Sequence record: PQ471516.1
Reading direction: 5' to 3' (one strand)
Length of the DNA: 64,000 nt
From: Escherichia phage Turkey5
This document shows, piece by piece, positions 30,538-41,447 of this stretch; the stretch's first letter is position 1, and each line of letters opens with the position of its first letter. Under the pieces are notes generated by a model that had not been told where the DNA came from, did no database searches, and saw nothing but the letters and a program-made list of their open reading frames with translations. The position numbers and the translations under genes were made by a program.

Positions 30538-30870
30538 ATGAATTTTGAACTGATTAATAAAATATCATTCTGTTTCATGTGTTTAATACAATTGTATTTT
30601 ACACTTGGATACATACTTAGATTTTTTAAGTACAAAAGTATATATAAACGCTTTTATGATGATGCACCTATCTTCGATTTACTGTTTATCGGTAATGCGT
30701 TTTCTATAGGAGAAATTCTGGTTGATGGCATTGACCCTGCACAACCACAGTTAGTTAGTATCTTGCTTGGACTAATTGTATCATGTGTTGGTATATTCCC
30801 AGTGGTGTGGTCATTCTTTCACTTCGTAGGGTGGCTTGATAAAATACGTAATAATTTACCGGAGCGATAA
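30538..30870 (+). CDS. small 3-TM membrane protein (paralog family)
   Basis: Hydrophobic; C-terminal KIRNNLPER tail like the 38680-41447 array. Confidence 0.55.
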   Translation: MNFELINKISFCFMCLIQLYFTLGYILRFFKYKSIYKRFYDDAPIFDLLFIGNAFSIGEILVDGIDPAQPQLVSILLGLIVSCVGIFPVVWSFFHFVGWLDKIRNNLPER

Positions 30871-31205
30871 TGCAAACAGTAAACTCATTAAGTTTTATCA
30901 TTTGTACATTGGCTGTATTTTATATGGTACTGTGCTATGTATTGTGGTTTTTCAAATTTGAAAGCATTTTAGAACGTGTTTATAGGTTGGACTTAGAAGA
31001 TGAGATTGGTATAACAGTACTCACTGTTCTAGGTTTTGTCTGTGGTGCGTCTATCCTGTTGGATATGTACATGAAACTACCCATTGATGCCCCACATCCT
31101 CCAGTAATCACCAGTTCAATTGTAATTGGTATTGTAGGTTTCCAGGGATTGATTAGTCTATTTTCCTCAATAGCTACATATAGAGATAAGCTACCAAAGA
31201 GGTAA
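30870..31205 (+). CDS. small 3-TM membrane protein (paralog family)
   Basis: ATGA overlap; C-terminal YRDKLPKR. Confidence 0.55.
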   Translation: MQTVNSLSFIICTLAVFYMVLCYVLWFFKFESILERVYRLDLEDEIGITVLTVLGFVCGASILLDMYMKLPIDAPHPPVITSSIVIGIVGFQGLISLFSSIATYRDKLPKR

Positions 31206-31208
31206 AAA

Positions 31209-31562
31209 ATGTCGGATAAGTACTACTTTACGGGTAAGAAATGTGAACCATACGTTTTGGACTACAAGGAACAGGAACAACCTAAACCGAAAAAGAAAGC
31301 GAAGAAGGAAGTAGTGAAGAAGCAAAAGCCACTGGTTAAAGGATTGAAACTTAAACCTTTTCAGAAACTGGACTTTGACACTTACAGAAAGATTTATTTG
31401 GATTTGACGTGTAACATTAGCTTTGATGTTAATGCGATGAACAGGAAGTATAACCTGAAGGGTAGTTTCAATTTTTATTATGACTTAAAGAATGATGATC
31501 TTGAAGCTTACCATGAGTGGTATAACGTTATGAATAACCACGTCGATGACAATAACCCATAG
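31209..31562 (+). CDS. hypothetical basic protein
   Basis: ORF track; Lys-rich. Confidence 0.55.
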   Translation: MSDKYYFTGKKCEPYVLDYKEQEQPKPKKKAKKEVVKKQKPLVKGLKLKPFQKLDFDTYRKIYLDLTCNISFDVNAMNRKYNLKGSFNFYYDLKNDDLEAYHEWYNVMNNHVDDNNP

Positions 31563-31570
31563 GTGAATAT

Positions 31571-31921
31571 ATGATTGAAATTATCGGAACGATCAGTTTT
31601 GTGTCATGTGTATTGTTCTGCACTTACATGATAATTGGACACATTTTGTATTTCTTCAATTACATTACTGTGTTTAAAAAATTCTACTTCGAAAAGAGTG
31701 GATTTTTGTTTTACATTTGTGATTTTTTCACGTGGGTGTCAATGGGTGCAGTTATAATGGATATTATGTTTAGTGAAGATGTTTCTAAGGTAGGGTTCGG
31801 AATGACGCTTCTACCATTTGCACTATTCGTTACCCTTGTAGCTTTGTTCTTGATAGTGTTATCAAGTAATTTTATATCAGAGAAATTAAACAAGGCTAGA
31901 GAAAACTTCCCAATGCGATAA
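31571..31921 (+). CDS. small 3-TM membrane protein (paralog family)
   Basis: C-terminal ARENFPMR tail. Confidence 0.55.
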   Translation: MIEIIGTISFVSCVLFCTYMIIGHILYFFNYITVFKKFYFEKSGFLFYICDFFTWVSMGAVIMDIMFSEDVSKVGFGMTLLPFALFVTLVALFLIVLSSNFISEKLNKARENFPMR

Positions 31922-31932
31922 AGGAGCATACT

Positions 31933-32259
31933 ATGTTCGCACTACGTAATAAAAAGACTCACCAAATCGTTGATTATGAATGGGTTTACTATTCCAATAC
32001 TGGCGGCCCTGAGATGATTCTGTGCCATGACGGTGAAGAACCATTTGTAACAAAACGCCGTGAAGCACTAGAAGAGATCATCGAAGAATACAATACCAAT
32101 GTAAATGCTGAAAATGGTCCTTATGACGATGGCCTACGTGTAGAGTTACCTGATGCTTATGAACATGGTAACACGGATTCTTTACGTATAGAGTTGCCAG
32201 ATGCTTATGAATCTGGTAACATGGATTCTTATGAGATTGTAGAACTGGTGGTTAAGTAA
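31933..32259 (+). CDS. hypothetical protein, MFALR family
   Basis: N-terminus MFALRNKK and C-terminus YEIVELVVK shared with 34116 and 34912 ORFs. Confidence 0.6.
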   Translation: MFALRNKKTHQIVDYEWVYYSNTGGPEMILCHDGEEPFVTKRREALEEIIEEYNTNVNAENGPYDDGLRVELPDAYEHGNTDSLRIELPDAYESGNMDSYEIVELVVK

Positions 32260-39373: not shown

Positions 39374-39712
39374 ATGGAGTACTTTCTGAGTTTATTACCA
39401 ATGCACATTCTAATCGCTACTGGTTATTATGTATTCTTTGCAGTATTCTTTTTCCTGATGTGGTTCTTCAAACGACCCATTTCAGTTGTAATTGACCGTA
39501 ACTACTGGCCTCCTATGTTACACGTTTGGTACTGGTTTTCGTGCTTTATGTCTATTATTCACTACGCTTTGATTAGCACTGGTCAACGTTCAAATGGGGA
39601 AGGTATTTGTACTGTGTTTTTTATATTAGGAACAGCGGTATATATATTTCTTCTAGTAACACCACTGATTCAGAAGTTACGTTCTAAGATTCCTGACGTG
39701 AGAGGACACTAA
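39374..39712 (+). CDS. small 3-TM membrane protein (array member 3)
   Basis: C-terminal KLRSKIPDVRGH. Confidence 0.55.
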   Translation: MEYFLSLLPMHILIATGYYVFFAVFFFLMWFFKRPISVVIDRNYWPPMLHVWYWFSCFMSIIHYALISTGQRSNGEGICTVFFILGTAVYIFLLVTPLIQKLRSKIPDVRGH

Positions 39713-39714
39713 CA

Positions 39715-40023
39715 ATGTTTGAATTTGTAATGTTTACCGTAATTTCATTTTACTTTTGTATTTGCTGGGTTGGATTTCTCTTTGCACTGAAATCTTTTAT
39801 CTTCTTTGAGAAGCAAGCAAAAGAGTTTTGGTTCCCAATCGCAGTAGTGACAGTAACATCACTGATTTGGGTATGGAAATTGTCATATGGTACATATGAT
39901 GACATTCAGGTAGCACAATTTCTTCTTGGCCCTTGTGTCGTTGTATTTGTAGTAAGTTCAATTCCACCATTATGTCGTGCAGTGAAGTCGTTTCATATGA
40001 AACAAAAAGCTAAACGCAGATAA
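39715..40023 (+). CDS. small 3-TM membrane protein (array member 4)
   Basis: Hydrophobic; basic tail. Confidence 0.55.
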   Translation: MFEFVMFTVISFYFCICWVGFLFALKSFIFFEKQAKEFWFPIAVVTVTSLIWVWKLSYGTYDDIQVAQFLLGPCVVVFVVSSIPPLCRAVKSFHMKQKAKRR

Positions 40024-40034
40024 AGGATAATAAC

Positions 40035-40352
40035 ATGCAAATTGAATTGATTCTATTCATCATCTGTGCTGTGTACATGTTATCGTGTTGGATTGGATAC
40101 ATGTTCGCAATCCCTGCATTTGACTTTTTTGAGAAACAATGCAAGAATGGTTTTATATGGGCGTGGGGTGCAACATTTAACAGTGTAATATGGTCAGTAC
40201 TACTTATATTCCATCCTCCTGAAGATATGTACGGTGTGAGGATAGTACTGGTCATGACGCTTATATTAGTTGGATTATCAGCCTGTGAAGCACTATACAA
40301 AGTATTCACTTCCATTCGTTTGAAGTACTTGAATAAGAGGAAAGATGTATGA
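40035..40352 (+). CDS. small 3-TM membrane protein (array member 5)
   Basis: Hydrophobic; basic tail. Confidence 0.55.
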   Translation: MQIELILFIICAVYMLSCWIGYMFAIPAFDFFEKQCKNGFIWAWGATFNSVIWSVLLIFHPPEDMYGVRIVLVMTLILVGLSACEALYKVFTSIRLKYLNKRKDV

Positions 40353-40726
40353 TTACATTTGCATTAAATGCATTGACAGTGATTCTATGCTATAGTACAC
40401 TCATCTATATTGGTAAATTCTTTTGTGTACGATTCTTTGAAGCACAATACGATGCGGCATATGAAGATGATATGGACACGGGTGCTATCAGTGCCATGTG
40501 TTATTGTTTTGGTTTATTCTTTACTGTCTGTGCATGGCTGTCGTACTATTTTGATTTTGGATACCTAGATGGTGACAGATTATTACTGGCGTTGTTATTG
40601 GTATTCGGTTCATTTTGTGTCGTGATACACTTTTTTATTCTTGTGTGTACTAGTGTAGTATATAAGTTAGTTCCGTTCTTTAAAGATTTGCACAGTAAAA
40701 TCCGTGCTAAGAAGAGAGGTGAGTGA
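40349..40726 (+). CDS. small 3-TM membrane protein (array member 6)
   Basis: ATGA overlap; C-terminal KIRAKKRGE. Confidence 0.55.
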   Translation: MITFALNALTVILCYSTLIYIGKFFCVRFFEAQYDAAYEDDMDTGAISAMCYCFGLFFTVCAWLSYYFDFGYLDGDRLLLALLLVFGSFCVVIHFFILVCTSVVYKLVPFFKDLHSKIRAKKRGE

Positions 40727-41079
40727 TGTTATCATTTGCGGGTCAGATTATCGTCATGGGTATTACATTATTATTCACAGTGAATAGTATTATTTTACTC
40801 GGTAAGTACTTTAATATTCGTCCAATGAATAAGTTGTACGATAAATTCAAAGAAGATAATCCATTCTATGTATTTTTATCTGTAGCAATTGGTATAGGTT
40901 TCGTTTTAGTAGTTATTGGTTTAATTGCATCTGCACCAGTTGTGATTGTTTTTGGAATCTTTTCTGCTACATGTGGGTTATTATTATTTTCTTTAGGTTT
41001 AATACTCGACCTATCGATTAACATTGGTATTAAACTTAAGAAGTTTCATGAAAAGCAACTTCAGAGGGACGTAAAATGA
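40723..41079 (+). CDS. small 3-TM membrane protein (array member 7)
   Basis: ATGA overlap; hydrophobic. Confidence 0.55.
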   Translation: MMLSFAGQIIVMGITLLFTVNSIILLGKYFNIRPMNKLYDKFKEDNPFYVFLSVAIGIGFVLVVIGLIASAPVVIVFGIFSATCGLLLFSLGLILDLSINIGIKLKKFHEKQLQRDVK

Positions 41080-41447
41080 CATACCGTGAGTACTTCCTAA
41101 TTGTTCATATCTTATTTTTTACCGTATTTTCTGTTGTAGGGTTGATGTATTATTTTTGTATTCAACCAGTGTACAATTACTTCCAGAAGACTACTGACAC
41201 AAAGGTTGTTGGTACAATTGCTGCAATCCTATTATATATGTTGAGTATCCTTCTTATAATTGGTGAAGTATTTTTTGATGGTATGCCAAATTCAGACGGT
41301 TTGCTTATTCATGAGTTTATAACTGGTTTATATTGTTTAGTTGGGTTTATTGCATTTGTGATTTTTACAGTGTACAGGATCTATAAATTTTTCATGTATC
41401 TTGGTGGAATACACGATTCTATTCGTCAGAAACGCATGGGAGAATAA
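41076..41447 (+). CDS. small 3-TM membrane protein (array member 8)
   Basis: ATGA overlap; C-terminal IRQKRMGE. Confidence 0.55.
   Translation: MTYREYFLIVHILFFTVFSVVGLMYYFCIQPVYNYFQKTTDTKVVGTIAAILLYMLSILLIIGEVFFDGMPNSDGLLIHEFITGLYCLVGFIAFVIFTVYRIYKFFMYLGGIHDSIRQKRMGE

Follow-up and report, generated by a model that had tools for sequence, protein, structure and literature searches.

Do eleven small membrane-protein genes that stand at two nearby sites in one phage genome descend from a common ancestor, and what might the phage do with so many of them? The genes in question belong to Escherichia phage Turkey5 (sequence record PQ471516.1), an E. coli jumbo phage of the Asteriusvirus type, of which a stretch of 64,000 nucleotides (nt), here called the window, was analyzed. 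An initial annotation of the window had described eleven paralogous proteins with three hydrophobic segments and basic C-terminal tails, encoded by three genes in an upstream array (30538-31921) and eight in a downstream, main array (38680-41447). All 11 open reading frames (ORFs), named m1 to m11 in genome order, are found at these positions; they encode proteins of 102-125 aa and carry the tails described, such as KIRNNLPER (m1), KLRNHIPEA (m5), and IRQKRMGE (m11). On the strength of profile comparisons, we conclude that the eleven proteins are true paralogs of one superfamily, new as a family.

Kinship and distribution of the array proteins

Compared as single sequences by BLASTP and phmmer, the proteins show significant links only within the sets {m1, m2, m3}, {m5, m6}, {m7, m8}, and {m9, m11}, with a weaker link between m9 and m10, and identity between paralogs is 10-30%. 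The PHROGs database distributes the eleven proteins over seven families (E 1e-35 to 1e-4), which it treats as unrelated. All these families are labeled "unknown function", in keeping with the initial annotation, which had assigned no function. Iterated searches with hidden Markov models (HMMs) brought the eleven proteins together. These searches covered all ORFs of the window and of syntenic regions from seven relatives, eight phages in all. Proteins m1-m6 converged as one set, and the HMM grown from seed m3 reached all eleven ORFs of the window and no other ORF in it. Across the eight phages, the searches gathered 80 ORFs, every one inside the two arrays. Among the decoys, there were no scrambled matches, and the best reversed match had E = 0.32.

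Because the iterated HMM test is partly circular, profiles of independent ortholog groups were compared. Shallow profiles, built from the eight phages, were strongly linked within three clades and linked at 20-45% probability between clades. Deep profiles, in which the shallow ones were pooled with metagenomic relatives from large protein searches, tie every clade into the family at 92-97% across 99-108 columns. In hhalign comparisons, clade C0 (m9-m11) matched C1 (m1-m4) at 92-94% over 107-108 columns, C2 (m7-m8) at 96-97%, and C3 (m5) at 95%; C1 matched C3 at 97% and C4 (m6) at 93%; and C3 matched C4 at 97%. Reversed-alignment controls stayed at or below 13% among multi-sequence clade profiles, and a membrane protein of 83 aa that is encoded nearby and unrelated to the family scored at most 2% against the family profiles. 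Among 99 unique sequences, a Phe just past the first transmembrane segment (TM1) is present in 98 and a His or Arg in the C-terminal tail in 99. These deep profile links and fixed residues indicate a single superfamily, with a resemblance that goes beyond composition. Many single-sequence pairs do lack significant similarity, which the initial annotation had named as the sign that would count against paralogy, and the profile comparison overturns that sign. It is therefore hardly credible that the proteins are not one family and resemble each other through hydrophobic composition and like length, even though most pairs are nonsignificant in BLASTP and phmmer and PHROGs splits them seven ways; the HMM matches were array ORFs only, and reversed profiles gave nothing comparable to the deep links.

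The 83-aa membrane protein, encoded at 33483-33734, had itself been considered as a twelfth member (m12) and was rejected by both the HMM searches and the profile comparison. It is 95-99% identical in five of six Asteriusviruses (PBECO4 has no match), unlike the hypervariable arrays that flank it.

All eleven genes lie on the plus strand. Clade C1 comprises m1 (30538-30870; 110 aa; phrog_19285), m2 (30870-31205; 111 aa), whose start shares 1 nt with the stop of m1, m3 (31571-31921; 116 aa), and m4 (38680-39009; 109 aa; phrog_19454). Between m2 and m3 stands a nonmember ORF (31209-31562) whose product is charged and has no TM segment. Clades C3 and C4 are represented by m5 (39022-39372; 116 aa; phrog_19046) and m6 (39374-39712; 112 aa; phrog_27396), respectively. 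Clade C2 consists of m7 (39715-40023; 102 aa; phrog_33258) and m8 (40035-40352; 105 aa). The latter is an additional copy in the window phage and in Escherichia phage vB_EcoM_JNE01; a single gene of this type stands in the other Asteriusviruses that were examined. Clade C0 closes the main array with m9 (40349-40726; 125 aa; phrog_26405), m10 (40723-41079; 118 aa), whose GTG start overlaps the stop of m9, and m11 (41076-41447; 123 aa; phrog_27618). The eight genes had been called translationally coupled. This stands for several junctions, with 4-nt ATGA/GTGA overlaps at m8/m9, m9/m10, and m10/m11 and spacings of 1-2 nt at m5/m6 and m6/m7 (in the upstream array, m1/m2 overlap by 1 nt). The other junctions measure 9-12 nt and each have their own GGAG/AGGA ribosome-binding site; overall, the spacing is very tight.

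Outside these loci, a word-indexed search of 5.8 billion proteins returned 15 clusters, and exhaustive searching of 1.84 billion representatives with HMMER returned 45. All matches are full length; they measure 99-141 aa (99-130 aa for those of the exhaustive search) and bear the names "hypothetical" or "membrane protein". Their sources, where known, are Escherichia, Salmonella, and Klebsiella jumbo phages or contigs of 101-362 kb, and no member on a bacterial chromosome was found among the matches of either search. As judged from these searches, the family is rare and confined to Rak2-like jumbo phages, with all 45 clusters traced to such phages or to contigs of jumbo size. Sequence searches of Pfam, NCBIfam, and the PDB gave nothing above noise; nine members compared with the PADLOC defense-system models had no match up to E = 0.1; and a BFVD fold search matched 121Q paralogs only. 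In the literature on Asteriusvirus, 121Q, PBECO4, phAPEC6, fEgEco12, and NrdC.10, no account of the array genes was found.

Membrane topology and early-type promoters

Three hydrophobic segments are present in all eleven members. Summed over the eleven proteins, Lys and Arg residues number 82 in loop 1 and the C-terminal tail versus seven in the N-terminus and loop 2, from which the positive-inside rule gives a topology with the N-terminus outside and the C-terminus in the cytoplasm (N-out/C-in). The same topology is given by the annotators' TMHMM predictions for the orthologs of Klebsiella phage Muenster. An AlphaFold2 model of m9, computed from a 49-sequence alignment, has a mean predicted local distance difference test (pLDDT) score of 95.2 and a predicted template modeling (pTM) score of 0.82. 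The model places TM1 at residues 2-24, a short cytoplasmic helix at 28-39, TM2 at 42-68, and, after a periplasmic turn, a long helix at 78-122 that is predicted to comprise TM3 and a cytoplasmic extension. The model of m5 is less confident (pLDDT 75, pTM 0.50) and has the same order of helices. Two motifs lie at the cytoplasmic interface: G-K-[FY]-F-x-V-[RK]-P...Y-D after TM1 and L-[HR]-x-K-[IL]-x-x-[KR][KR] after TM3. The hairpin of TM2, turn, and TM3 is the most variable part among orthologs, at 27-34% identity versus 46-60% elsewhere.

Both arrays are preceded by promoters of the sigma-70 type. That of the m1-m3 operon (30189-30217, plus strand) matches the consensus at 12 of 12 positions (TTGACA-17-TATAAT, in the context CAGTACTGTATAAT), and m1-m3 sit within a longer operon, 30238-32636, downstream of it. 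For the main array, the initial annotation had reported one consensus promoter in front and a strong terminator at the end, and both are borne out. An early-type promoter (TTGACA-17-TACAAT, 11 of 12 positions) occupies 38624-38652 on the plus strand; the eight-gene block begins 28 nt past it, with a GAGGA ribosome-binding site ahead of the m4 ATG. In six Asteriusviruses, the block promoter, TTGACAGTACTA...GTAGTACTAT, is kept at -56/-58. Past the stop codon of m11, a terminator-like hairpin (41448-41490, plus strand) has a 14-bp stem that includes the core UACCCAGUAC/GUACUGGGUA, a 9-nt loop, and a U-rich tail, with a folding energy of -20 kcal/mol (z = -6.9). A pattern scan had missed this hairpin because of its 9-nt loop. 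Counterpart hairpins are present in G17, PBECO4, and Turkey3.

The T4-type late motif TATAAATA was not found within or upstream of any array examined. A related phage, CBB, has RpoD-type promoters that delimit a putative early host-takeover region, and a TATAAATA-like motif serves its late genes (PMC5259590). The promoter type and the lack of a late motif suggest that the arrays are expressed early. The phAPEC6 orthologs (gp012c-017c and gp028c-029c) are not among the 62 virion proteins of that phage (PMC7247149), a set in which small hydrophobic proteins are hard to detect. With this limit, their absence from the virion proteome suggests that the array products are nonstructural.

Promoters and terminators in the window share a palindrome, CAGTACTG (core AGTACT), that is strongly over-represented across the 64 kb, with examples at 30204, 32652, 38628, and 41456. 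The core occurs at 210 sites, 9.6 times expectation, and CAGTACTG at 37 sites, 54 times expectation. Coding sequence contains the palindrome in each of the three frames, and early promoters (as in CAGTACTGTATAAT) and terminator stems contain it as well. Its density is alike in all Rak2-like loci (2.4-5.3 per kb), and there is essentially none in T4-like and PA5oct-like loci. A literature search for CAGTACTG returned primer matches only. The window also contains an intergenic repeat, a cassette whose terminator-like hairpin includes the -35 box of the promoter that follows: AAAAGG(G)TTGACTTCGGTCAGCC(C)TTTTT, 2 nt, and then TATAAT or TATTAT. Copies are located at 29727-29756, 34395-34424, 35675-35703, 37338-37366, and 37781-37809. 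Judged by its sequence, the cassette represents a second class of promoter that differs from the TTGACA...CAGTACTGTATAAT type. It is because of this repeat that the ORFs starting at 35675 and 37766 seem to share an N-terminal peptide.

Array exchange beside a conserved NTPase gene

Directly upstream of the main array lies a conserved anchor, a gene for an NrdC.10-type P-loop NTPase (37847-38620, plus strand; phrog_1250). Its start is probably at 37847 (MNRTEK...) rather than at 37766, as judged from the annotation of JNE01 and EJP2 and from alignment with the homolog in the metagenomic contig L010; the 27 codons upstream of 37847 overlap one of the promoter-hairpin cassettes. The main array follows the NTPase gene wherever the upstream context is present, namely in Asteriusvirus, EJP2, RaK2/Muenster, and L010 (contig L012 is truncated and does not include this context). 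In A4, RaK2, Muenster, and L010, the two are not separated by a promoter; in EJP2, they lie 1 nt apart. The NTPase itself occurs in 1,309 phage records, and no family member was found beside the NrdC.10 homolog in the T4-like (Shfl2) and PA5oct-like phages inspected.

From 38600 to 41600, the window is 97.9% identical to JNE01, and other phages of the 121Q/PBECO4/G17 group match the 30-42 kb region more loosely. Asteriusviruses keep the layout of two arrays, with seven or eight genes downstream and one to three upstream. The alcyoneusviruses RaK2 and Muenster have an eight-gene array, EJP2 has six members, and metagenomic contigs carry at least four and at least seven consecutive members. Paralog types are kept in roughly equal order across genera. 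Identity to positional orthologs in other Asteriusviruses is 27-54% for the array genes and 86-99% for the genes between the arrays. The ratio of nonsynonymous to synonymous substitution rates (dN/dS) is about 0.2 in array genes, equal to that of neighboring genes, which indicates that the array genes are functional and constrained by purifying selection. Inside one array, dS ranges gene by gene from 0.05 to 1.5, and these differences point to mosaic recombination. Relative to EJP2, identity is 99% in the ORF upstream of the NTPase gene and 90-91% across the NTPase gene to its stop codon; past that codon, similarity collapses, and the best matches are 31-34% (m9 and m10). This break at the NTPase stop indicates that the array is a swappable cassette at a fixed anchor.

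A DenV-type pyrimidine-dimer glycosylase (34453-34887), a homolog of T4 endonuclease V, is encoded between the arrays and is 89-94% identical across relatives. The segment 35158-37769 carries ORF102, a 549-aa ORF with repeated "HPERxxP" units (ORF549), and ORF96; in the first comparison, with seven syntenic relatives, the segment lacked a counterpart, and the only two matches, both short and weak, were to ORF549. ORF96 (37479-37769) is 99% identical in EJP2. A paralog pair of 58 and 60 aa (33278-33454 and 35476-35658) matches a single gene of the relatives, at 86-90% and 57%, respectively. Three small soluble proteins (31933-32259, 34098-34385, and 34940-35152) make up another paralog set and have a common C-terminal ending that resembles YEIVELxVK. 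A 42-aa soluble ORF (MKPEQWIIDDMR...LLxWYVKVxxxKE), 54-67% identical among its copies, stands in or just ahead of the arrays of RaK2, Muenster, EJP2, and a metagenomic contig (L008, 6816-6941; L009, 3828-3956; L010, 2554-2682; L016, 6380-6508) but is present neither in the window nor in G17-type Asteriusviruses. About a dozen paralogs of 264-447 aa are encoded in tandem on the minus strand (42724-58420); in relatives, they are annotated as RCC1-like or "DNA condensation" proteins. The RCC1-like arrays of Rak2-like jumbo phages are likewise tandem multigene families of the same genome region, but their products are soluble, of about 380-450 aa, and unrelated in sequence to those studied here, and several orthologs are virion-associated in phAPEC6.

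Possible functions of the arrays

What might such arrays do? We tentatively favor an early battery of inner-membrane proteins that act like T4 Imm or otherwise interfere with envelope targets. We give this function a probability of roughly one in three. It is the best fit because it accommodates the early-type promoters, the membrane topology, the apparently nonstructural products, the diverged paralogs, the hypervariable hairpin, and the exchange of cassettes. Ortholog divergence, the gene-wise spread of dS, differences in copy number, array replacement, and the variable hairpin are also traits like those of an arms race. In the proposed mechanism, the proteins would enter the cytoplasmic membrane of the host in the first minutes after infection, and the variable intramembrane and periplasmic hairpin of each paralog would bind a different membrane-inserting target. 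Candidates for such targets are proteins that superinfecting phages use as tape measures or for ejection, toxins that form pores, and membrane defense effectors of the host. Topology and stability would be set by the conserved cytoplasmic motifs.

T4 Imm, an early protein of 9 kDa, lies in the inner membrane with its N-terminus in the periplasm and keeps the genome of an incoming phage out by binding its membrane-inserting tape-measure protein, and small polytopic inner-membrane proteins can neutralize a membrane-inserting helical protein by intramembrane recognition (bioRxiv 10.64898/2026.03.06.709160). The array proteins resemble Imm in being small, inner-membrane proteins with a periplasmic N-terminus and, as far as promoters and the virion proteome indicate, early and nonstructural. 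They differ from it in number, length, and architecture: Imm is the product of a single gene, has 83 aa, and has another helix count, whereas the family has 11 paralogs of 102-125 aa in tandem arrays. Colicin immunity proteins have a small polytopic inner-membrane topology. Together with HK97 gp15, they may serve as further models for interference.

A number of observations weigh against interference. Neither Imm_superinfect nor a related family was matched in Pfam, NCBIfam, or PHROG, and no specific fold similarity to Imm was seen; library scans found no sequence or specific fold similarity to Sp, gp15, or any characterized family. The likeness to colicin immunity proteins is by analogy only, with no colicin-immunity family among the Pfam matches. 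There is no support for gene-wide positive selection, as dN/dS is about 0.2 and high dN comes with high dS, and the greater variability of TM2 and TM3 could reflect mere weaker constraint. Finally, the retention of paralog types across genera and the coupled junctions also fit an obligate multi-subunit complex.

Such a complex could take the form of a hetero-oligomeric assembly in the inner membrane (a channel, anchor, or gate) with fixed stoichiometry, on whose cytoplasmic motifs the NTPase docks. The position of the NTPase gene directly ahead of the main array, the lack of an intervening promoter or, in EJP2, of more than 1 nt, the similar order of distinct paralog types across genera, the overlapping or almost touching junctions, and the location of the most conserved residues on the cytoplasmic side all agree with it. 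Yet the NTPase is far more widespread than the arrays, being recorded in phages that, where inspected, lack an adjoining member; m1-m3 belong to a separate operon amid soluble proteins; copy number varies and alleles are mosaic inside an array; and whole arrays have been exchanged beside a nearly unchanged NTPase gene. Because all array-bearing lineages are related, their synteny with the NTPase gene may be merely inherited. We regard the hetero-oligomer as a serious rival of interference, though a rather unlikely one. A bolder form, in which array and NTPase make up a modular, ATP-driven hetero-oligomeric inner-membrane machine that is confined to Rak2-like jumbo phages and whose subunits are swapped as a cassette to retarget it, appears quite unlikely, as does its use as, for example, a gate that controls how DNA or proteins cross the host membrane in the course of infection.

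The early promoters, the membrane location, and the many coexpressed copies would also suit general perturbers or remodelers of the membrane, such as viroporin-like depolarizers or proteins that saturate YidC or Sec, which would turn off envelope functions of the host, have no specific targets, and gain dosage from many copies. Dosage, however, favors similar copies, whereas the paralogs here are highly diverged, and each type is a separate ortholog lineage under purifying selection, a retention that dosage leaves unexplained; we consider this unlikely. Class I holins such as lambda S105 are proteins of about 100 aa with three TM segments in N-out/C-in orientation and a highly basic C-terminus in the cytoplasm. 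The array proteins fit this class in size, segment number, topology, and basic C-terminus, and the endolysin of Rak2-like phages has an N-terminal TM or signal-arrest-release (SAR)-like domain (PMC5259590), so that holins, antiholins, or lysis-timing proteins that act with a SAR-type endolysin could be envisaged. The family nevertheless differs from class I holins in that it has no dual-start motif and no adjoining endolysin. Both operons have consensus early-type promoters without the T4-type late motif, no holin family was matched in Pfam (E up to 1) or PHROGs (E up to 0.01), no endolysin or lysozyme gene is present in the array neighborhood, and fEgEco12 has a separately annotated holin (PMC13070987). 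Eleven copies would be unprecedented, and a role in lysis is very unlikely.

For the Rak2/121Q-group jumbo phages, which are used in therapy studies and in which more than 80% of genes have no assigned function, this analysis merges seven "unknown" PHROG families into one superfamily with up to eleven genes per genome. The superfamily gains a confident topology and a predicted fold, and the array site emerges as a recombination hot spot for which a conserved NTPase gene is the anchor. Should the proteins act in exclusion or immunity, the arrays would be the first multi-paralog array of such a type and would shape phage competition and the design of phage cocktails; if instead they form a complex coupled to the NTPase, they would represent a new phage membrane machine.

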